DNA of 64,000 nt from an uncultured Candidatus Bathyarchaeia archaeon (GCA_964396445.1 CAYNFI010000004.1:1007-65006), one strand, 5' to 3'. Positions 10,739 to 51,020 are shown, counted from the first letter of the stretch. Notes: generated by a model not told the origin, from the letters alone. Program-made: numbers and translations.

Positions 10739-11077
10739 TCACGCTGTGAAGAAATGGAGGTAGATGAGGAAGAGTGTAAGGGCTGAGAGGGTTAGCGCAA
10801 CTACCTTAAGGACTTTATTGGCGATAGACGCGTTAACCAGCTTTTGGTCGAGCTCCGTGATCTGCCTCCTGAGAAGCTCAACCTCTGACTTGCTCAGGGT
10901 AACGGTTCCCACGGGCTCCTCCTCCCTGTAAACAACGTCTATAGACCCCGTTGGCACACCGTCTCCCCCCACTTCCAAGGGCTGCCCAGGCTCATCCCAG
11001 GCAACATGTTCACCCGATACCTTAACAGGTGTCTTCTTCACCTGTGAGTCGAGGAACTCCTTGAAACGCTCCTCCAT
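10739..11077 (-). CDS. small tail-anchored membrane protein
   Basis: 112-aa ORF 6 nt upstream of the MoxR gene, with a C-terminal hydrophobic helix (VVALTLSALTLFLIYLHFF). Confidence 0.5.
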   Translation of the reverse strand: MEERFKEFLDSQVKKTPVKVSGEHVAWDEPGQPLEVGGDGVPTGSIDVVYREEEPVGTVTLSKSEVELLRRQITELDQKLVNASIANKVLKVVALTLSALTLFLIYLHFFTA

Positions 11078-11512
11078 AGAACCTCTTCCTGCCAGTGTTC
11101 AATAATCTATAAAAGGTAAAATGCTAGAGTTAAACGTAATGTTTCCAGAAGATGGCTGAAAAACCTGCAACCATAATACCCGCAAACCCATAGATTCTTT
11201 CCTCTAAATTCCCAGCTCCACCTTCTGCCTCCCTTACCCAAAGTAGTCCAACATCTCCTAATACAGATTCTAACCAACGATGTAAAACAGCGTGAACTCA
11301 GAGAATCACGGTTGTCAACTTCATCCCTAAGTAATAGGAATTATTCTCATCGCGCATCCCCGGAGGGGGAAACGAGGAGGCAGAGGCTTGGTAAACCCGC
11401 ATAGGTAACACCCATTAAGGATAATATTTTCACAGGTCGCAACGAAACCCCATGTTGACAACCTCTAGGCTTTTATAGATATGCTTATAAAGGCTCAAGG
11501 GACAGAATCAGT

Positions 11513-21107: not shown

Positions 21108-22205
21108 CTAGGTCTTAGTAACCGCTCTCGGGTATGAACCTAAGACCTTCAGGAAGATGCATTTCGACGCTAAGTCTGTTAAGGCTTCCCGGCATTTTAC
21201 GTCGTCTTTATGACCTTCGAAATCGAGGTAGAACACGTACTGCCAAGGCTGCCCTCGCGTAGGTCTTGACTCAACCTTGGTAAGGTTGATGTCTCGGGTA
21301 GAGAAGGCCTCTAAGGCTTTGAATAGGGCGCCTGGGACGTCGCGGACGGCGAAGATAATCGATGTTTTATCCCGGCCTGTAGTTTGGCAGTCAGTGTGTC
21401 CGAGGATGAAGAACCTTGTGAAATTATTCGGTTGGTCTTCGATGCCCTTGGCGAGAACCTCCATACCGTAGATCTTAGCCGATGTCATCGCGCCGATAGC
21501 CGCAGCGTTCTCCAATTCCTTCAACATCTCAACCGCCCGAGCTGTACTCGCGACCTCCCTCCTCTCGGCTTTAGGTAACGTACGTTCCAGGTATTCCCTG
21601 CATTGGGCAAGGGCTTGGCTGTGGGAAACAACCAGGCGGATGTCCTGTAGGCGGGTTCCCGGTTTGGCGATGAGGTTGTGGTGGATTCGACGTTCAACCT
21701 CCCCGCAGACCATCAGCCTTGTCTCAAGGAGTAGCCCAAGGGCTACGGTGTAGGAGCCTTCTAAGGAGTTCTCCACGGGGACGACGCCGAAGTCAGCGTC
21801 GCTTACGTCTACAAGCCTAGAAACGTCGTGTACGCTGGGGCAGGGTGTGAAATCAGCTCCAGCTGATTCAAAGTAGCTTCTAGCAGCCTCCTCGCTGAAG
21901 GTGCCCACGGGGCCGAGGTAGGCAACCTTCACCCTCCCTTTCTGCCCACGTTCACACATAGCCATAACCTCCTCGTATACGGCTTCAACATCGTCGGGGT
22001 TAAGCCCAAGCCCGGAGGCACGCTTCCTGACGTGGGCTAAGACCTGCCTCTCCCTCTCCACATCCTTAACACTTAGCCCAGCAGTCTTCTTAAGCTCACC
22101 GAGCTGAAGGGCTAGGTTCAACCTCTTCCTGAGAAGTTGAACTAGTTCCTCGTCGACGCTGTCAACCTCTTTCCTCAACCCCTCGATTTCCTCAACCCTT
22201 GTCAT
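21108..22205 (-). CDS. pheA: bifunctional chorismate mutase / prephenate dehydratase
   Basis: N-terminal CM helices (LRKEVDSVDEELVQLLRKRLNLA), a PDT core (VAYLGPVGTFSEEA) and a C-terminal ACT domain (TSIIFAVRDVPGAL...TKVESRP). The ATG overlaps the aroC stop (ATGA). Confidence 0.85.
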   Translation of the reverse strand: MTRVEEIEGLRKEVDSVDEELVQLLRKRLNLALQLGELKKTAGLSVKDVERERQVLAHVRKRASGLGLNPDDVEAVYEEVMAMCERGQKGRVKVAYLGPVGTFSEEAARSYFESAGADFTPCPSVHDVSRLVDVSDADFGVVPVENSLEGSYTVALGLLLETRLMVCGEVERRIHHNLIAKPGTRLQDIRLVVSHSQALAQCREYLERTLPKAERREVASTARAVEMLKELENAAAIGAMTSAKIYGMEVLAKGIEDQPNNFTRFFILGHTDCQTTGRDKTSIIFAVRDVPGALFKALEAFSTRDINLTKVESRPTRGQPWQYVFYLDFEGHKDDVKCREALTDLASKCIFLKVLGSYPRAVTKT

Positions 22206-23299
22206 TTCAAAACCCTCGGTATGCAGCCGAGCCTTAAGGCATGGTCCGTTATAACGATGGCGGTGCAGGCTTCAACCACGGGAACAGCCCTAGGAACGAT
22301 GCAGGGGTCGTGTCTCCCAGAAGCCTTCAAATTAGTTTCCCTCATCGTCTGAATGTCAACCGTGATCTGCATCCTAGCTATGGAGGCTGGTGGCTTAAAG
22401 GCAACCCTAAGGGTTATGGGCATCCCGGTTGCAAGACCTCCGAGAATGCCCCCTGCGTTGTTCGTTAAGGCTGTAACCCTTCCATCGCGGACCACGTAAG
22501 GGTCGTTGTTCTCAGAGCCCTTCATGGAAGCCGCTTTAAAGCCTGCCCCAAACTCCACACCCTTCACACCGGGTATGTTGAAGATAGCCTTAGCCAGGTC
22601 TGCGTCGAGGGAATCGAAAACGGGTTCGCCTAGACCGACGGGCACATTTAACGCGTTGCATTCAACAACGCCTCCTAAGCTATCCCCTTCCTGAAAAGCC
22701 TTAAGCACCGCCTCCTCCATCAAAGCAGCGGCGGCTGGGTCCGCGCATCTCACAGAGTTCTTGTACACCTGTCCCCGAGTCTCTTCGTAGGAAACGGTTC
22801 TCGAAAGTTTCACCGACCCGATTTGAACCGTGTGGGCTAAGACCTCCACGCCCAGCTTTCCCAGCAGCTTCTTTGCCAAAGCCCCAGCGGCGACGAAGGC
22901 TACGGTGATGCGGCCTGAGAAGCGTCCTCCACCTCTGTAGTCGTTGAAGCCTCCATACCTCATGTAAGCCGTGTAATCGGCGTGTCCAGGTCGCGGCTTC
23001 ATCCTCAACTGTTCGTATGTGGTTGAATCCACATCCCTGTTCCATACGACCATGCATATCGGCGCCCCAGTTGTTAAACCCTTGAAAACACCAGAGGTGA
23101 TCTCCACCTTATCAGGTTCAAGCCTCGCTGACGTTACTTTAACCAAGCCAGGTCTCCGTTTATCGAGCTCATGTTGGATATCTACCTCTGAGAGGGGAAG
23201 CCCTGCTGGGCACCCGTCTACTATAACTCCCACTTGGCGCCCATGGCTTTCCCCAAAGCATGTGACAACAAAGCTCTTCCCAATGGAGTTACCTGACAG
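22202..23299 (-). CDS. aroC: chorismate synthase (start extended to in-frame CTG)
   Basis: The conserved N-terminus GNSIGKSFVVTCFGESHG lies upstream of the first GTG (23233), in frame. A stop lies 10 codons further up, with no ATG/GTG/TTG between. The only plausible initiator is CTG 23299..23297. Confidence 0.8.
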   Translation of the reverse strand: MSGNSIGKSFVVTCFGESHGRQVGVIVDGCPAGLPLSEVDIQHELDKRRPGLVKVTSARLEPDKVEITSGVFKGLTTGAPICMVVWNRDVDSTTYEQLRMKPRPGHADYTAYMRYGGFNDYRGGGRFSGRITVAFVAAGALAKKLLGKLGVEVLAHTVQIGSVKLSRTVSYEETRGQVYKNSVRCADPAAAALMEEAVLKAFQEGDSLGGVVECNALNVPVGLGEPVFDSLDADLAKAIFNIPGVKGVEFGAGFKAASMKGSENNDPYVVRDGRVTALTNNAGGILGGLATGMPITLRVAFKPPASIARMQITVDIQTMRETNLKASGRHDPCIVPRAVPVVEACTAIVITDHALRLGCIPRVLK

Positions 23300-24590
23300 A
23301 AACCATCGCCCCCAACGAACGCATATCCTTCACGAAGTTTGGATAAGACTTACTGATGCTTTCAACGCCGCGGATGGTTGTACAGCCCTCCGCCCCCAGC
23401 GCCGCTACGGCGCATGCCATGGCGACCCTGTGGTCGTTATGGGCTTCAAGGGAAGCCCCGTAGAGTTTCACTGGGCCCTCAACGACCAACAGGTCCTCAA
23501 AATCTAACACTTTAGCCCCCATCTTTCTCAACTCCGATGCGATAGTGTAAAGCCTATCAGATTCCTTAAACCTCAACCTTCCAGCCCCTTCGACAACCGT
23601 TTTCCCCCTCGCGTAGCATCCTAGAACGGCGTAAACTGGTGTAAGGTCCGGGGTCTGCTTCACATCTACTGTAAGCCCCTTTAAAGGCTGGTCGCATCCG
23701 AGGACCTCGACGTAATCTGGTCCAATCAAGAGTTTAACACCCATTGCTCCCAGGGATTCTAGGATAACCTTGTCCCCTTGACACGTATCCTTTGGAAGAC
23801 CTGTAACTTGAACCTTGGAGTTTGTAACCGCAGCCGCGGCTAGGAGAAAGGCAGCGGATGAGTAGTCGCCTGGTACAAGGTGGTTGAACCTCCTGTAAAC
23901 CTGCCCGTTTGGGATATGGAAGCTCCTGTAATCACCTGAAGCTCCAACCCTCACTCCGTGCTTACTGAGAACCTCAACGGTCATCTCCACGTAGGAGCTG
24001 GATTCAAGCTCCGTGGTCACATTGATTTCTGTGCTCTCACGTGCCTTAGGCAGTGCGAATAAAAGCCCTGAAATAAACTGTGAGCTTACGTCACCAACTA
24101 TAGTAGCCTTCCCGCCTTTAATGCCCCCGCCGAAAACAACGATGGGGGGGCAGCCGTTACCCCTTGTAGAATAACAGTTAACACCGAGCTTTCTAAGGGC
24201 TTCGAGGAGGGGTTCCATAGGTCTCCTGCGGAGAGACCCGTTCCCCGAGAGCACCGACATGCCGTCGGCTAAGGCGCATACAGGTGTCAGGAACCTTATG
24301 GTTGAACCTGACCCCCCGCAGTCAACCACGTCTTCGGGAGTTCGCGGGTTAGTTAATCCCTTTACGACGGCTGATTCCTCATCCAAAGTTATGGAAGCAC
24401 CCAGCATACGGCAGGCTTCAACCGTGGCCACCGTATCCTCGCATACAAGGGGATGCTGAACCACGCTTTCATCTCCAGAAAGTGAAGCGGCTATCAGCGC
24501 CCTATGCGTGTACGCCTTGGAAGGTGGGGCTTTAACCTTACCCTTTAAGGCTTCAGTTTTCTCCACGATGAGGCTGGGCATAGTGCACAC
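23289..24590 (-). CDS. aroA: 3-phosphoshikimate 1-carboxyvinyltransferase (EPSP synthase)
   Basis: KAPPSKAYTHRALIAASL, LRRRPMEPL and DHRVAMA motifs. The start is GTG 24590 or ATG 24581. Confidence 0.9.
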   Translation of the reverse strand: MCTMPSLIVEKTEALKGKVKAPPSKAYTHRALIAASLSGDESVVQHPLVCEDTVATVEACRMLGASITLDEESAVVKGLTNPRTPEDVVDCGGSGSTIRFLTPVCALADGMSVLSGNGSLRRRPMEPLLEALRKLGVNCYSTRGNGCPPIVVFGGGIKGGKATIVGDVSSQFISGLLFALPKARESTEINVTTELESSSYVEMTVEVLSKHGVRVGASGDYRSFHIPNGQVYRRFNHLVPGDYSSAAFLLAAAAVTNSKVQVTGLPKDTCQGDKVILESLGAMGVKLLIGPDYVEVLGCDQPLKGLTVDVKQTPDLTPVYAVLGCYARGKTVVEGAGRLRFKESDRLYTIASELRKMGAKVLDFEDLLVVEGPVKLYGASLEAHNDHRVAMACAVAALGAEGCTTIRGVESISKSYPNFVKDMRSLGAMVSVR

Positions 24591-25463
24591 CTAGGGGATA
24601 ACGTGGGCTTTCCCCGTTTTAATCCCAGCTTCAATAACCTCACCTTCATAACGCCGCCATACATCCTTAACCTTCTCAACGTTTTCCTCTAGCACGACAG
24701 CGGCTACGGCCGGTCCCTTCCCTGAAAGCCCCGCGGCTACAGCGCCCTGAGCCAGGGCGTCTACGGCTATGCCTGGGTTATACCCGAGCGTGGATGCGTA
24801 TATGAGCCCGTTCAGCTTCATCGCTGTCCAGTAGTTACCTGTAAGGGCTTCCCTGAAGGCCACATCTACTTCCCCAGCCATTAACCTCATCCGCTCAATA
24901 TCAGCCTTAACCGTGTAGGCTTTACCTTGGGGCACAAGGATCAGGACCCTGAACCCTTCCTCCACCTTAAAGTGTTTCAGAACCTTCCTCGCCATGTTAT
25001 CCGTTACGACGATGTTTCCTAGGTATGAGGCGCAAGCGTCGTCGAAGGCTCCCGTCACCGTAACCTTAGCTTCTAGAGCCACGTCAACCGCCATGTTAAT
25101 GACGTCTAAATCCTCTAGGCTTCCGCCGACGGCTGATAAGGCGGCGAGGACGAGGGCGTTCGCGGCTACGCTGCTGCTCTTCAACCCCCTAGCTATGGGG
25201 ATGTTAGAGCGCGTCTCCACATAGGCTCCATGGCTTCCCTCTAAGCCGAAGCGTTTCAACACCCTTTTAACTATCTTCTCTATGAGGCTTGTGTCTTCAC
25301 CTGGGTCTGACAGGATCTTTCCCCGGATGATTCCAGGTTCATCTGTTAACTTTACCGCAGCCTCGGTCCAGAGGTCGATGCCCAGCGCAGCACCCTTTCC
25401 ACCCGCGAGGGCGTTAACCACGGTAACAGCGCCGTAAGCCACTGCTTTCCCAACCCGACCCAT
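24591..25463 (-). CDS. aroK: archaeal GHMP-family shikimate kinase
   Basis: GHMP-like PIARGLKSSSVAANA motif and the N-terminus typical of archaeal shikimate kinases. Positioned between aroE and aroA. Confidence 0.8.
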   Translation of the reverse strand: MGRVGKAVAYGAVTVVNALAGGKGAALGIDLWTEAAVKLTDEPGIIRGKILSDPGEDTSLIEKIVKRVLKRFGLEGSHGAYVETRSNIPIARGLKSSSVAANALVLAALSAVGGSLEDLDVINMAVDVALEAKVTVTGAFDDACASYLGNIVVTDNMARKVLKHFKVEEGFRVLILVPQGKAYTVKADIERMRLMAGEVDVAFREALTGNYWTAMKLNGLIYASTLGYNPGIAVDALAQGAVAAGLSGKGPAVAAVVLEENVEKVKDVWRRYEGEVIEAGIKTGKAHVIP

Positions 25464-25480
25464 TCCACCTCATCCTTCCT

Positions 25481-26338
25481 TTAGATACTTGGTCTAACCT
25501 CTTCCGCAGCTTTCATCATCGCATCAACGGGTGCCTTAACACCTGTCCAGATCTCGAAGGAGGCAGCGGCTTGGTATACGAGCATCTGTATACCATCGAT
25601 GGTTTTAGCCCCTACGTTCCGCGCTTCCATCAGTAGCCTTGTTTTCACAGGGTTATAGACAAGCTCGAACACGGTGAGAGACCTTCTAAGAAGGTCTGCG
25701 TCTACGGGGATCTCCGCTCCCAGTGGATTCATGCCAACCGGGGTTGCGTTGATGAGGATGTCGGCGTCAGCTAACTCCCTTTCAACGTTTTCCCTTTCAA
25801 GACCCCCGCTTGATAACACTCCCTCCGCGTTCATCGCAGCCTCCTCAGCTAGGGCTCTGGCTTTTTCAACCGTTCTATTGAGTATGACGGTGTAGCAGGG
25901 GGTCTGCGCTAGTCTGTGAGCGATAGCCCTCGATGTGCCTCCCGCCCCTAGCATGACGACTTTACTATCCTCCAGTGTTTGACCGTTCTCCCTTAGAGCA
26001 TTTAACGCGCCTACACCATCTGTGTTATAACCGATAAGCCTTCCATCAGCGTTCACCACCGTGTTGACGGCGCCGATTCTCCGCGTGGTTTCCTCCAATT
26101 CATCGAGGTATTGTATGATATCGGTTTTATGGGGCATGGTCACGTTTAAGCCCCTGAGCGCAAGCGCACGCGCACCCTTTACGGCGTCTCTGAGCCCTTC
26201 GCGTTTAACGGTTAACGCTACATAGACATAGTTGAGGCTGAGGACTTTGAAAGCGGCGTTGAGAATGTAAGGGCTTAGCGAGTGCTTAACAGGGTCACCT
26301 ATGACCGCGTAGACCCCTGTATCCCCTGAAACCTTCAG
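25481..26338 (-). CDS. aroE: shikimate dehydrogenase (start extended to in-frame CTG)
   Basis: The substrate-binding N-terminus VYAVIGDPVKHSLSP...NVTMPHK is in frame upstream of the called GTG (26143). There is no ATG/GTG/TTG back to the stop. CTG 26338..26336 overlaps the aroD TGA (CTGA). Also has the GAGGTSRAIA NADP motif. Confidence 0.8.
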   Translation of the reverse strand: MKVSGDTGVYAVIGDPVKHSLSPYILNAAFKVLSLNYVYVALTVKREGLRDAVKGARALALRGLNVTMPHKTDIIQYLDELEETTRRIGAVNTVVNADGRLIGYNTDGVGALNALRENGQTLEDSKVVMLGAGGTSRAIAHRLAQTPCYTVILNRTVEKARALAEEAAMNAEGVLSSGGLERENVERELADADILINATPVGMNPLGAEIPVDADLLRRSLTVFELVYNPVKTRLLMEARNVGAKTIDGIQMLVYQAAASFEIWTGVKAPVDAMMKAAEEVRPSI

Positions 26339-27021
26339 GTTTCAACCCCCAGTTTCTCATAGATGCTCATCAAGTCACCTATCCATAGTTGACCCCGCGC
26401 CGTCTCAAATCCCTTCTTAACACTGGCGTAGGTGAAGTAGGCTCCGAGTAGCGGCGAAGCAACCCTTGAAAGAATCCCCGCGGAGCCCATGGCGAAGCAC
26501 ACGATCTTGCACTTTTGCCCCGCCTCACCTGTTAGGGTTAGGCAGGTAAGGTTATCCTTCGCCTCCCGCGCTGTGGTTACGACTTTGCAGACATAGGCTC
26601 CCGCCTCAATTTCCCGCCTCAAGAGGCCTCTGATGTCAGTTAGACTCGGGGTACTCTGGAAATTATGATGAGATACTATAGGTTTAACCCCTTGGGCCTT
26701 CAACTCATGTACTGTTCCACTTAGCCCTTCGGATGTTAGTTCAGCGTCCGCGTACTCGAAACCTGTTCCTGCAACTTTAACGAGCCGTTTCAAGCGTTCT
26801 CCTTCGCTTCCAGCCCACAGTCCACCCTGTGATGCTTGCCTATTCGTGGCGATGAGGGGTAGCTTCGTGGAAGCCGCTAGGTCCTCGACGCCGTTTAATC
26901 CCTTTAGGTAATCGATTCTAAGTTCTGCTAAAGCAGCTCCATAGGCTTCAGCCTTCTCGAGAAGTTTAAGGGCTTCGGCTATGCTCCGTGCGGGGATCGG
27001 TGTACATATCCTAGCCTTCAC
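26335..27021 (-). CDS. aroD: 3-dehydroquinate dehydratase, type I
   Basis: ELRIDYL, IVSHHNFQSTP and CKVVTTA (Schiff-base Lys region). The GTG start overlaps the upstream stop (GTGA). Confidence 0.85.
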   Translation of the reverse strand: MKARICTPIPARSIAEALKLLEKAEAYGAALAELRIDYLKGLNGVEDLAASTKLPLIATNRQASQGGLWAGSEGERLKRLVKVAGTGFEYADAELTSEGLSGTVHELKAQGVKPIVSHHNFQSTPSLTDIRGLLRREIEAGAYVCKVVTTAREAKDNLTCLTLTGEAGQKCKIVCFAMGSAGILSRVASPLLGAYFTYASVKKGFETARGQLWIGDLMSIYEKLGVET

Positions 27022-28115
27022 CTCTCGATCACCGTCTCTTCCTTTACTAGTGTTCCGAAGTGCCTCCCACCCTCCTCAACGTGGGCTAGGATCTCGTCGC
27101 CGGGTTTAAGCTCGGTAACGGATTTTGAGCCTTCCCGTGTTACAAAACGGATTGTCTCAGCGTTTTGAACGATCACCTTGCCAACTCTTTCTTGGCATAG
27201 GGCTTCGACTAGGATTAGGGGGCGCCACTCAACCTTCACCCTGCAAACGTTCGCCGCTCTCGACATTCCCTCTCGGTCAACTATGAGTACATCCTTTCCG
27301 GCGCCTAGCTCTGATAGATACCTTGTCTTCCCACCCGGTGTGAGGGTGTAATGCGACACGGGTCCGGCGTTAACCCTGAAGGGTCTAGGCTCCACATGCG
27401 GGTTTTCATAAACCTCGGCTTGGACGAGGAAGAGGCTGGATGACTGGCAGCCTACGAGCATGCCTTCGCCTTGCTTCATGAGGTCGCATGTGTCAACGCA
27501 TACCCGTGCGCCGATGCCTAGGGGCGTCGATGCTATAACCTCCGCTGGTGTGATAGTCATCCTTTCAGCCGTCTTTTTCTCCTCAACCCTCGTTTTAACC
27601 GTCTTTAACACCTCGTTAACCTGCTGAAGCCCCTTCGACGTCGGGTTCTCAACGACTACGCCGTCAACGCCGATTTCTAGGGCTTCAAGTGTAAGCCGTG
27701 CTTTTCCAGCGTCTGGGATGAGTGCTAGGAGCCTGCTTTTTCCGTGAACGGAGGCGATGATGTTTTCAATGGGGATCACTTCCCAGTTTGGGCATCTTAG
27801 GATGATGTAGTCAGCCCCTGCTTCAGCTGCCCTAGCGACTGACGCTTCGTCATCCCGGGACTTCACGGTTACAGTTATGCACGTTGCGCCTCCTGTCTTC
27901 TTCGCTTCCTTGGCTTCCTTCAGGTCTTCGACGATCGTGATGTCCGCGTCCCTCGCTGAAGCTGTTTTAAAACCTAGACCTTTAACCGCAGTTACGTCAA
28001 CGGGGTCAAGTATGCATGCTTGGCACAGCTTAGATGCGGCTTCGATAAGCCTGCCCTTTTCCTCCACGTTCAGTGAGGGGTTGATCCTAGCCCAAAGTTC
28101 CCTCACAGGCTTCAC
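27018..28115 (-). CDS. 3-dehydroquinate synthase II (archaeal type)
   Basis: Family-typical [20 protein letters not shown]-like segment ([21 protein letters not shown]). Located between the ADH synthase gene and aroD. Confidence 0.8.
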
Positions 28116-34455: not shown

Positions 34456-34619
34456 TACCTATTCTCCCTCTTCACGACCTATAGACGCGTCTATGTCGTG
34501 TTCTTAAAGTTTTATGGATGGTCGCCTGAGCATCTGTTTTCCGCTGTGAAAAATGCTTCTGCGAGGCTGAGGAAAAGCTTTTACCCCGTTTGGGCTATTA
34601 ACCCCTTGGTGGGAGGGAG

Positions 34620-35864
34620 CTGACGCAGCTTCGCTTCTTCGGTGGGGTTGAGGGAGCCATCGGCGGTAACCAGGTTCTCCTCGAGGATGGTACAGCGAAG
34701 GTTTTCATCGATTTCGGGATGAACTACGCCCTTTGGAAGGACTACTTTGAATTCATCTTCGCTGAGCCCAAGGGTTTCAGCGACCTAAGACAGGTTGGCT
34801 TGATACCAAGCTTAGAGGATTTAACGGATGTAGACGCGTGCTTCATCAGCCACGCCCACGGTGACCACTGGCGCTTCATATCGGCTCTACCTGAAGGCAC
34901 GCCGGTTTACTTAGGTGAATGTACGTTGAAGCTTGTGAAAGCCTGGGTTGAGACGCGGAGGAGGAGAAAAGGCGTTGACAGTTATGGGCATCTCTCCTTT
35001 AAAACTTTTCACAGCGGGGATAGGATGAGGGTTGGGGGATTGGAGGTTGAAGCCTACAGCGTAGACCACAGCGTCCCTGGTGCTTACGGCTTCATCTTCA
35101 ACACGTCTTCAGGACCCATTGTTTACACGGGGGATTTCAGGCTTCACGGTACTTATAAACCGGAAGTCTCAGTTCTCGACATCACCGTCGACTGCGGAGT
35201 AAGAGCGCTTATCTGTGAAGGAACAAACGTGGGTCAAGTTGTTTCCCCTACGTCTGAGCGTGACGTTGAGGAGCGTGTAACGGCGCTCCTTCAAAGATGT
35301 GAATGTCTCGCCATCGCCGACATGTCTCCAGCTGATGTTGATAGGATAAAGACCTTCTATAAGGCTTCGTTATCCGCGGGGAGGCGCCTCGTTGCCACTG
35401 AGCGCATAGTCACGGTCCTTCAGAAACTCAGCGATGATACGAGGCTTAAACCTCCAAGGGTTGGCGACGAGGTTCTCGAATACTCATGCGTTGAGGATGA
35501 AATTAGGAAGCATCCTTCAGGCTTCATCCTATGTACATCATTCTACAGCGACCGGGAAGTCCGAGAGCTTAAACCCCCGCCTGGAAGCGTATACATCCTA
35601 AGCTGCTCAGAGCCCTTCGAGGAGGAGCGTGTTATAGCCTTCCAGAGGCTTCAGAACTGGCTTCACCTATGCGGAGCCCCAACCTACCACATCCACTCCT
35701 CGGGGCACGTCTACCCAATCGACCTAAGGGCTTTCGTGAGTAGCTTGAAACCCAAGGAAGTATTCCCAATGCACACAGCTTTCCCCAACGCTTTAAAGGT
35801 CTTCATAGAAGACCTAACCCCGGTTACCGTACCCAAGAGGGCGGAAACCTATATCCTTACTTAA
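34620..35864 (+). CDS. MBL-fold metallo-hydrolase (start extended to in-frame CTG)
   Basis: HxHxDH motif (ISHAHGDHW). The conserved first beta-strands TQLRFFGGVEGAIGGNQVLLEDG lie upstream of ATG 34719, in frame. TAA is at 34599, and the only candidate initiator is CTG 34620, preceded by GGTGGGAGGGAG. Confidence 0.7.
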   Translation: MTQLRFFGGVEGAIGGNQVLLEDGTAKVFIDFGMNYALWKDYFEFIFAEPKGFSDLRQVGLIPSLEDLTDVDACFISHAHGDHWRFISALPEGTPVYLGECTLKLVKAWVETRRRRKGVDSYGHLSFKTFHSGDRMRVGGLEVEAYSVDHSVPGAYGFIFNTSSGPIVYTGDFRLHGTYKPEVSVLDITVDCGVRALICEGTNVGQVVSPTSERDVEERVTALLQRCECLAIADMSPADVDRIKTFYKASLSAGRRLVATERIVTVLQKLSDDTRLKPPRVGDEVLEYSCVEDEIRKHPSGFILCTSFYSDREVRELKPPPGSVYILSCSEPFEEERVIAFQRLQNWLHLCGAPTYHIHSSGHVYPIDLRAFVSSLKPKEVFPMHTAFPNALKVFIEDLTPVTVPKRAETYILT

Positions 35865-48839: not shown

Positions 48840-49034
48840 TTGCCCATCATTTCCTCATCGCATATAACATAATACGCGTGTAGCGTCTACGCTCGCTTAT
48901 CTCTCCCTCTTCAAGCATTGCGACCACTTTACTTTGCCCATCAACTTATTAAAGACTTCGAATAAGATTGTTAAGCCGATGGTTTAAGCTCTTTCAGATA
49001 GGGAAAGCGCGTTTATTCACTCTGGGGGTCTCAG

Positions 49035-51020
49035 TTGGAGGTTTCAGAAACTGATGTGAAGAGGTTTTTCCCCTACCCAGAATTCCGACCTTATCAACTC
49101 GATACGATACGCTTCACCTATAACGTTATGAAAAGTGGGAGGATCGGGCTTCTCTCAGCGCCCTGCGGCGTCGGTAAAAGCATCTCTGTCCTATCCGCCT
49201 TCTTCACAGCGCGGTATGCGGGCTTCGGGCAGCGGCTTCTAGCCTTAACGCGGACGCGGAACCAGCTGGAGATCTACAGTCGAGAATTGAAGCGGATTAA
49301 GGAACACTCTGACCTAAGGTTTACGGCTTCGATGTTTAAGAGCAAGCAGGACATGTGTCCCTTGGTCCGTGAGGGTAAGGAGCTTAAGGACATAGCTTAC
49401 GGAGACTTTCTCCGTTACTGTAGAAGCCTTAAAACAGGCGCGTTCGGGCAAACCTGTGAGCACTACGAACGGACTTTTCAAGGTTGGAAACCATGTTGGA
49501 GAACGCTTCAAACGGTATATAGGATTACTAAAGACGGTCCGTTTCTACCCGATGAAGTGTACACTGTATGCGTTGAATCAGGGTTGTGCCCATACGAGGT
49601 GACGAAGTTCCTAGCGAAGCAAGCAGATGTCATCATCGGCAACTACAACTACCTCCTTGTACAGCCCATAAGGGCTTCAATCCTAGGAAAAGCCGGAGTA
49701 AGGCTTGAGAAGGTTAATTGCATACTCGATGAAGCCCATTCACTTCCAAGGTACGCGGCTGGAATCCTCTCCGATGAGCTTTCAACCGTCTCCATTAAAC
49801 GCGCCTTAGGCGAGGTTGAACAATACGGGGTTAGGGATTATGGGATCCTATCGGTTCTCAAGGAACTCGTCGAGGATTTGGGAAGCCGAGCTTATACGCG
49901 GTATGGTAAGGACGGAGCTTTGGTAATAAAGCGACAGAATGCAGTAAACACCTTTCTCAAGGATCTTGCGTTACAGGGTGAGGATGAGCTCCTAAAGCTC
50001 CTCTCAGACCTCTCAGATGAAGGTGAAATGGTTCGATGGAAGAGGGTTGAGGGAGGTAAGACTCCTGTCTCCTATCTCTCTAGATGTGCTTCCTTCCTAA
50101 CGGAGTGGGTGGGTATCGGCGAGTTAGGTTACATCCGCTACGCGATTGCTGGGGATAAGGATAATGGTGAGGGTGTTCATAGCCGGATTGGGGTTAAATG
50201 CCTCGACCCATCCATCAGCGGAAACGTGATTAACAGCCTCCACGCCGCTGTTGTTATGTCAGGAACCCTCTGGGACATGGATTACTACACAGATGTCCTC
50301 GGGTTGAACAGAGAAAGGGTTGACTCAATCGAAGTACCCAGTCCCTTCCCGAAGAAGCACAGGTTAATAATTGTTGACAAGGCGGTGACAACACGTTATC
50401 CAATGAGGGGTACAGCTGAGTGGATAAAGATCGCGGCTCACATTGAAGGGATTTCTGAAGTCGTAAAAGGGAGCGCCGCTTTCTACTTCCCATCATACGA
50501 GGTTATGGAAGCCGTTTTGAAACATGTGAAAACACCCTACCCGATCCTCGTTGAGCGAAGGGATACAGATGTACGAGATGTTCTCACCTTCCTCAAATCA
50601 GGGAGTAAAGTACTCGTCTTCGGCGTGGCAACGGGGAAGATCAGCGAGGGCATCGACATGGCTGTTAGAGGACGAAGCCTCCTAACATGCGTGGCAATCG
50701 TAGGCTTACCGTACCCAAAGAAGACGGAAACTCAATACGCGTTATTAAAGTACTTCGAGGCGAAGTTCGGCGGGGAAGGCTTCACGTACGCGAATGAGGT
50801 TCCCTGCCTAACCGCCATAGCTCAGTCAGCTGGGAGGCTACTCCGCAGCCCTGAGGATAAAGGCGTCATTGTTCTCATGGATGGAAGGGTCACGGGAAGG
50901 CTGAGGGAGAAGCTTCCAAAGGAGTGGATGGACGATATGGTAGTGCACACGAATGTTGAAAAGCTTCTGATACGCATAAGAACTTTTCAAGAACAGTTCA
51001 TGAACGCGGAGAAGCCTTAA
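49035..51020 (+). CDS. xpd: XPD/Rad3-family 5'-3' DNA helicase with Fe-S domain
   Basis: Walker A SAPCGVGKS, DEAH box (ILDEAHSL), and four Cys between them (CPLV, YCRS, TCEH, LCPYE). TTG start. Confidence 0.85.
   Translation: MEVSETDVKRFFPYPEFRPYQLDTIRFTYNVMKSGRIGLLSAPCGVGKSISVLSAFFTARYAGFGQRLLALTRTRNQLEIYSRELKRIKEHSDLRFTASMFKSKQDMCPLVREGKELKDIAYGDFLRYCRSLKTGAFGQTCEHYERTFQGWKPCWRTLQTVYRITKDGPFLPDEVYTVCVESGLCPYEVTKFLAKQADVIIGNYNYLLVQPIRASILGKAGVRLEKVNCILDEAHSLPRYAAGILSDELSTVSIKRALGEVEQYGVRDYGILSVLKELVEDLGSRAYTRYGKDGALVIKRQNAVNTFLKDLALQGEDELLKLLSDLSDEGEMVRWKRVEGGKTPVSYLSRCASFLTEWVGIGELGYIRYAIAGDKDNGEGVHSRIGVKCLDPSISGNVINSLHAAVVMSGTLWDMDYYTDVLGLNRERVDSIEVPSPFPKKHRLIIVDKAVTTRYPMRGTAEWIKIAAHIEGISEVVKGSAAFYFPSYEVMEAVLKHVKTPYPILVERRDTDVRDVLTFLKSGSKVLVFGVATGKISEGIDMAVRGRSLLTCVAIVGLPYPKKTETQYALLKYFEAKFGGEGFTYANEVPCLTAIAQSAGRLLRSPEDKGVIVLMDGRVTGRLREKLPKEWMDDMVVHTNVEKLLIRIRTFQEQFMNAEKP

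Follow-up and report, generated by a model that had tools for sequence, protein, structure and literature searches.

Two genes of the shikimate operon of an uncultured Bathyarchaeia archaeon, aroE (shikimate dehydrogenase) and aroC (chorismate synthase), very probably start at CTG, with a Shine-Dalgarno (SD)-like site that would direct the ribosome to a functional CUG codon. Both genes lie on the minus strand of the stretch of DNA analyzed here (the window; 64,000 nucleotides, contig C4:1007-65006 of a 2.08-Mb assembly in 125 contigs). They belong to an archaeal-type operon of eight genes, which encodes in order 2-amino-3,7-dideoxy-D-threo-hept-6-ulosonate (ADH) synthase, 3-dehydroquinate (DHQ) synthase II, AroD, AroE, a GHMP-type shikimate kinase, AroA, AroC and a chorismate mutase/prephenate dehydratase. 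Genetic code table 11 lists CTG as a rare start, and archaea are usually said to initiate at AUG, GUG and UUG only. A CTG start is of a known but rare kind that is little documented in archaea. What is unusual here is the number of predicted cases in one archaeal genome and the apparent persistence of the aroE CTG at the family level.

The aroE gene (25481..26338, minus strand) is 285 codons long when counted from the CTG at 26336..26338. Its frame reads TGA AAC CTG(26338-26336) AAG GTT TCA GGG, and the CTG shares four nucleotides with the stop codon of the upstream cistron aroD (3-dehydroquinate dehydratase I; 26335..27021, minus strand; TGA at 26335-26337), forming CTGA. The first in-frame ATG, GTG or TTG is a GTG at 26143, codon 66 from the CTG, which encodes the V of NVTMPHK. 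Family models place the start of the protein far upstream of this codon. Residues 12-94 from the CTG match the Pfam Shikimate_dh_N profile over its whole length (1-83 of 83), the NCBIfam aroE models begin at residues 5-9, and NF001319 yields a full-length match over residues 5-281 (302.8 bits; cut-off 252). By the Pfam and NCBIfam models together, the family start lies 54 codons upstream of the first canonical codon. The predicted N-terminus from the CTG is (M/L)KVSGDTGVYAVIGDPVK. In an alignment of nine genomes that includes all four genomes with a CTG at this site, residues 1-65 hold 15 invariant columns, among them H19 S20 L21 S22 P23. This conservation across deep divergence indicates that the segment is translated and under purifying selection. 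When the 1,940 genes called in the genome were scanned for coding potential ahead of their first canonical start, aroE also came out on top.

The aroC gene (22202..23299, minus strand; 365 codons from the CTG) shows the same arrangement. Its frame reads TGA AGG ATA TGC GTT CGT TGG GGG CGA TGG TTT CTG(23299-23297) TCA GGT AAC TCC ATT GGG, and the proposed start at 23297..23299 stands 5 nt before the stop codon of aroA (TAA, 23289-23291). The aroA gene (5-enolpyruvylshikimate-3-phosphate (EPSP) synthase; 23289..24590, minus strand) is the cistron upstream and overlaps the aroC start by 11 nt. The first canonical start codon, a GTG at 23233, is downstream of the FGESHG motif. Counted from the CTG, AroC residues 10-355 correspond to positions 1-327 of 327 in the Pfam profile Chorismate_synt. 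The NCBIfam models TIGR00033 (442.6 bits) and NF003793 (461 bits; cut-off 321) agree, with the equivalog cut-off passed over the full length of the protein. The Pfam and NCBIfam family start is 13 codons upstream of the first canonical codon, and orthologues are 364-374 amino acids long. The predicted N-terminus is (M/L)SGNSIGK. The HSLSP segment of AroE and the GESHG segment of AroC hold what we take, from AroE and AroC structures, to be substrate-binding and catalytic residues.

Both CTGs are preceded by SD-like runs of G on the minus strand, GGGGGT at 26345..26350 for aroE, 6 nt upstream of the codon, and GGGGG at 23309..23313 for aroC, 9 nt upstream. SD strength was scored by the energy of the anti-SD duplex, since exact-match scoring proved too coarse and missed sites of the GGGGG type; the anti-SD sequence itself was assumed, the 3' end of the 16S rRNA being missing from this metagenome-assembled genome (MAG). 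On this scale the aroE site reaches -10.5 kcal/mol, which places it in the top 2.3% when compared with internal codons and in the top 12% when compared with unambiguous canonical starts; the aroC site, at -11.9 kcal/mol, is in the top 0.5% and the top 6%, respectively. In relatives, G-rich sites occupy the equivalent place upstream of the aroE CTG position.

An earlier note on this DNA had claimed that aroE has no ATG, GTG or TTG until codon 66 and carries a CTG at a CTGA overlap, that a conserved segment of aroC lies upstream of its first GTG with a CTG 5 nt before the aroA stop, and that other junctions of the operon are ATGA or GTGA overlaps. Direct reading of the sequence bears out every one of these coordinates, the further overlaps being at 22202-22205, 27018-27021 and 28112-28115. 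The note had also asked whether functional orthologues possess the N-terminal segments; they are kept in orthologues and covered by the family models. Its view that gene callers restricted to ATG, GTG and TTG truncate both enzymes holds for the public gene calls as well. The aroC of the window is present in the public protein collection only as a truncated product of 343 amino acids, and three more proteins, of 343 or 314 amino acids, share its 90% cluster. Called lengths are thus 343 or 314 amino acids against 365 for AroC, and 218 against 285 for AroE.

The base calls, which the note had wanted checked, are repeated in independent assemblies. An exact-protein look-up of the truncated aroC product and its 90% cluster led to seven contigs assembled independently, each from a different sample (six from JGI metagenomes and one from a Logan assembly), which match the window over about 6 kb at 99.89-99.98% identity. 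All seven have both CTGs, and none has ATG, GTG or TTG at either site. The upstream cistron aroD is recognized on the matching contigs by Pfam DHquinase_I, and the eight-gene operon is intact in eight assemblies.

The start positions were compared in about 110 orthologues of aroE and about 100 of aroC, more than 200 loci overall. As the note had hoped to learn from relatives, canonical starts are found at the same codon positions as both CTGs. Family f2 has TTG and family f4 has ATG at the homologous aroE codon, which precedes IGDP by about 12 codons. The other Bathyarchaeia genome loci read, about 40 in number, use ATG, GTG or TTG there, as do 41 of 42 metagenome loci. One metagenome locus of a different Bathyarchaeia lineage (L202, contig Ga0068714_10009744) has ATA at the aroE start position and no canonical start near it. 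Within the order, which comprises 17 species genomes, CTG is found in all three genomes of the window's own family f1 (G000, G001 and G002) and in G004, the sole aroE-bearing genome of family f3. None of these four has a usable canonical aroE start before strand beta-1. Their AroE proteins are only 54-60% identical to one another, with branch lengths of 0.4-0.6 substitutions per site. The aroD-aroE junctions differ as well, being a CTGA overlap in G000 and G004, TAG AGG CTG in G001 and TAA GG CTG in G002, and the CTG is the sole feature common to all four. The single-gene aroE tree does not resolve the four genomes as one clade, and both a single and a repeated origin of the CTG fit it. In G001 (locus L030, contig G001:C5), aroD shares its frame with aroE and only TAG AGG before the CTG separates the two, so that readthrough would fuse AroD to AroE; this arrangement is absent from the other genomes.

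For aroC, a canonical start is located at -14 or -13 from FGESHG in 77 of 77 metagenome orthologues, none of them closer than 70% identity to the AroC of the window, and in the genome relatives that were read. The CTG is exactly at -14, where the closest orthologues have TTG. Judged from this comparison, the aroC change is one from TTG to CTG and is limited to this species.

CTG starts are, on the evidence of the whole assembly, a trait of the organism rather than of two aro junctions. The genome-wide scan that the note had proposed was made over 1,940 genes from a simple home-made gene caller, in which unambiguous starts are 49% ATG, 26% GTG and 25% TTG. N-terminal extensions were ranked by codon usage, a score that discriminates weakly (0.19 nat per codon) and served for ranking only, and were then confirmed by Pfam coordinates. 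About 10 of the roughly 1,940 genes (about 0.5%) appear to start at CTG, that is, aroE, aroC and about eight others with conserved N-termini upstream of their canonical starts and a single in-frame CTG at the expected site. All of these candidates have an SD stronger than average. Six of the CTG sites were picked blind to the SD; their energies range from -9.1 to -15.7 kcal/mol, which ranks them in the top 0-6% relative to internal codons (p = 2e-7, combined by Fisher's method). A similar signal emerges when in-frame codons that precede the first canonical start by 6 codons or more are compared. A strong SD precedes 16 of 121 CTGs (13.2%), the highest share of any codon, against 4.9% overall and 3.7% for CTC, CTT and CTA (p = 2.5e-4).

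A third CTG start candidate in the window is that of a metallo-beta-lactamase (MBL)-fold hydrolase (34620..35864, plus strand), whose CTG at 34620-34622 directly follows GGTGGGAGGGAG (34608-34619; SD energy -10.4). Its Pfam Lactamase_B match begins 19 residues before the first ATG, and its relatives have TTG or ATG at the exact codon position of the CTG. A gene for an NYN-domain protein has the arrangement GGAGGTG-7 nt-CTG and a Pfam domain that begins upstream of the canonical start; the position of its CTG is ATG in G002 and GTG in G001. The Pfam domain likewise starts ahead of any canonical start codon in the candidate genes for an alpha-L-fucosidase, Pcc1, a DUF7347-NrdD protein, a DUF2116 zinc-ribbon protein and an SRPBCC protein, for which the candidate start is ATT or CTG. 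The match is weak for a PF0610-like protein, the remaining candidate. Adenylosuccinate lyase, aIF2-gamma, isochorismatase, creatininase, PhoU, a helicase and a methyltransferase also ranked high and were rejected, since canonical starts fit them.

The scan also brought up other candidate near-cognate starts. In ProC (contig C69, about 2484, plus strand) the first ATG comes only after the Rossmann motif, and AAGGAGAGG immediately precedes an ATC. A phosphoribosyltransferase (contig C3, minus strand, gene 48986-49439) has a conserved N-terminus that begins at an ATT just after the back-stop. A secreted protein (contig C8, about 2984, plus strand) has GGAGGTGG-5 nt-ACG (-16.7 kcal/mol) before its signal peptide. 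At 10823-11129 on the minus strand of contig C6, a gene resembling the C-terminal part of pyruvate kinase seems to be without an in-frame N-terminal half, which a frameshift or a pseudogene may explain.

We propose that the G-run 6-9 nt upstream seats the small ribosomal subunit at the CUG, which the initiator tRNA most likely reads by a first-position mismatch, as it does GUG and UUG. Strong SD pairing would offset the weakness of the codon, and the products would be a full-length AroE of 285 amino acids and a full-length AroC of 365. The overlaps with the preceding stop codons (-4 and -11 nt) may add translational coupling within the operon, which the mechanism would not need. From the DNA itself, the conserved N-termini, the homologous start positions and the SD sites, all directly observed, we infer that ribosomes initiate at the CUG and that methionine is the first residue. 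In the assembly, aragorn, which detects only 13-27 tRNAs there, did not find a tRNA-Met, and many of the tRNAs probably carry unusual introns. A pattern search of the assembly for the initiator tRNA returned only a fragmentary initiator-like anticodon arm (GGGCTCATAACCC; contig C24, about 19872, plus strand).

Several points weigh against CUG initiation. In bacteria, CUG initiates poorly where its activity has been measured. The list of candidates across the genome depends on a crude gene caller and an assumed anti-SD sequence. Archaeal aIF1 is reported to discriminate against non-canonical starts (PMC6237735), and aIF1 (SUI1) was found in 17 of the 17 genomes of the order. Its presence in all of them led us to reject loss of aIF1 as a cause of the CTG starts. 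Two aIF1 genes are present in each of the two sister-genus genomes, G001 and G002, and one in each of the remaining 15. Furthermore, the aroC CTG was found in one species only among about 100 orthologues, and it could be a recent, mildly deleterious and tolerated change. Finally, other near-cognate codons are close by, an AAG after the aroE CTG and an ATT and an ATA in aroC.

The uniqueness of the aroC CTG would also suit a decay of the start codons, in which the CTGs are inactivating or strongly hypomorphic and the enzymes are absent or made only in truncated form. Switches to CUG are indeed very rare in closely related prokaryotes, at 1e-5 to 4e-4 per start (PMC5622118). Against this, all eight genes of the operon are intact and identical in eight assemblies, and the truncated products would be without the HSLSP and GESHG segments. 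The CTG of aroE also persists in four species as divergent as described above, with the N-terminal 65 residues conserved; we therefore consider decay very unlikely. The nearby near-cognates raise the question of whether the enzymes are made by some other route, be it a start at AAG, ATT or ATA, a C-to-U editing of the mRNA from CUG to UUG, or a frameshift or readthrough that fuses AroD to AroE and AroA to AroC. Other genes of the genome seemingly use ATT, ATC or ACG, and the shared frame of aroD and aroE in G001 would allow a fusion there. Upstream of strand beta-1, on the other hand, CTG is the sole candidate common to the four aroE genomes, and relatives with the same gene order use an ordinary TTG or ATG at the CTG codon. 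As for fusion, the aroD-aroE frame relation varies (-1, in frame with a stop, -1), aroA-aroC would need +1, and G000, G001, G002 and G004 have no common slippery site or recoding signal. Editing of mRNA is not known in archaea. These routes taken together seem highly improbable.

An error of sequencing or assembly in the MAG has in its favor only the general prior that MAGs carry errors. The seven contigs from seven samples agree at both CTGs, which excludes base-call error, and the aroE CTG recurs in three other MAGs; an artifact is thus next to inconceivable. More deserving of attention, if still unlikely, is termination-reinitiation alone, in which CUG works solely as a restart codon after aroD and aroA and never independently. 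The overlaps of 4 nt (CTGA) and 11 nt at the two junctions suit it, as do the CTGA overlap in G004 and the CTGs of Pcc1 and the PF0610-like gene, which overlap their upstream genes by 8 and 11 nt. Short overlaps are, moreover, a known setting for coupling in archaea (PMC10666635). In G001 and G002, however, the aroE CTG falls after the aroD stop with no overlap, and five of the ten CTG candidates (MBL, NYN, fucosidase, DUF7347-NrdD and DUF2116) have a divergent upstream neighbor 134-456 nt away and yet a strong SD. Reinitiation is therefore not required in general. The earlier note had read the two sites as CUG initiation or coupled reinitiation. CUG initiation is supported by the homology of the start positions, by the aroE CTG in four species, by the seven assemblies and by the strong SD-like sites, and the overlaps are as it described; coupling need not be the general mechanism, half of the candidates having no same-strand upstream gene within 134-456 nt. 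SD-directed initiation at CUG is thus the reading that we retain for aroE and aroC.

CTG starts of this kind have precedents in bacteria. In Escherichia coli, hda and yfjD have verified CTG starts (EcoGene 3.0, PMC3531124). Like them, the genes described here have one in-frame CTG, preceded by a ribosome-binding site and predicted from N-terminal conservation, and a downstream canonical codon that would not be the true start. The E. coli cases are bacterial and were verified by mutagenesis, whereas ours come from an archaeal host with eukaryote-like initiation factors and are known from sequence. They also differ in number, with 2-3 genes of about 4,300 in E. coli against about 10 of about 1,940 here. 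In Caulobacter crescentus, CTG accounts for 0.7% of starts by ribosome profiling (PMC4117421), a genome-wide frequency similar to the one estimated here and likewise beside ATG, GTG and TTG, although in that bacterium the evidence is direct, from ribosomes and liquid chromatography-mass spectrometry, and here it is comparative. Among archaea, 5% of the newly predicted small open reading frames of Methanosarcina mazei have been assigned CTG (PMC11456600). The aroD-aroE junction resembles archaeal termination-reinitiation coupling at -4/-1 overlaps (PMC10666635) in that it is a 4-nt NTGA with ATGA and GTGA at neighboring junctions; it differs in that the restart codon is CTG and in that the genome also appears to have CTG starts without an upstream cistron. 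At GUG and UUG starts, a weaker start codon pairs with a stronger SD (Belinky, Rogozin and Koonin 2017, PMC5622118). The present genome follows the pattern of that survey in that orthologues differ in the first base of NUG, and GTG (26%) and TTG (25%) starts are abundant. Unlike in the survey, the CUG of aroE is retained here across family-level divergence.

At least eight further genes of the organism are likely shortened by gene callers in the way that aroE and aroC are. Such truncations pass into the pathway reconstructions, protein-family alignments and structure predictions that are built on MAG gene calls. The aro junctions offer concrete cases that could be tested in reporter or cell-free systems. 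About 10 SD-backed candidate CUG starts, one of them kept across families, constitute comparative evidence for CUG as a natural archaeal initiator. More tentatively, and at somewhat less than even odds in our judgment, all four NUG codons may initiate in this lineage of Bathyarchaeia, and perhaps also in other archaea, with CUG as a stable fourth start used by about 0.5% of genes and always accompanied by a strong SD. Selection would then keep the aroE CTG across families, for instance to hold the output of AroE low in the operon, and the codon would be no transient defect. If this is true, the first-base tolerance of the archaeal initiation complex would be nearer to that of eukaryotes, which prefer CUG among non-AUG starts, than to what the textbook archaeal set of AUG, GUG and UUG implies.

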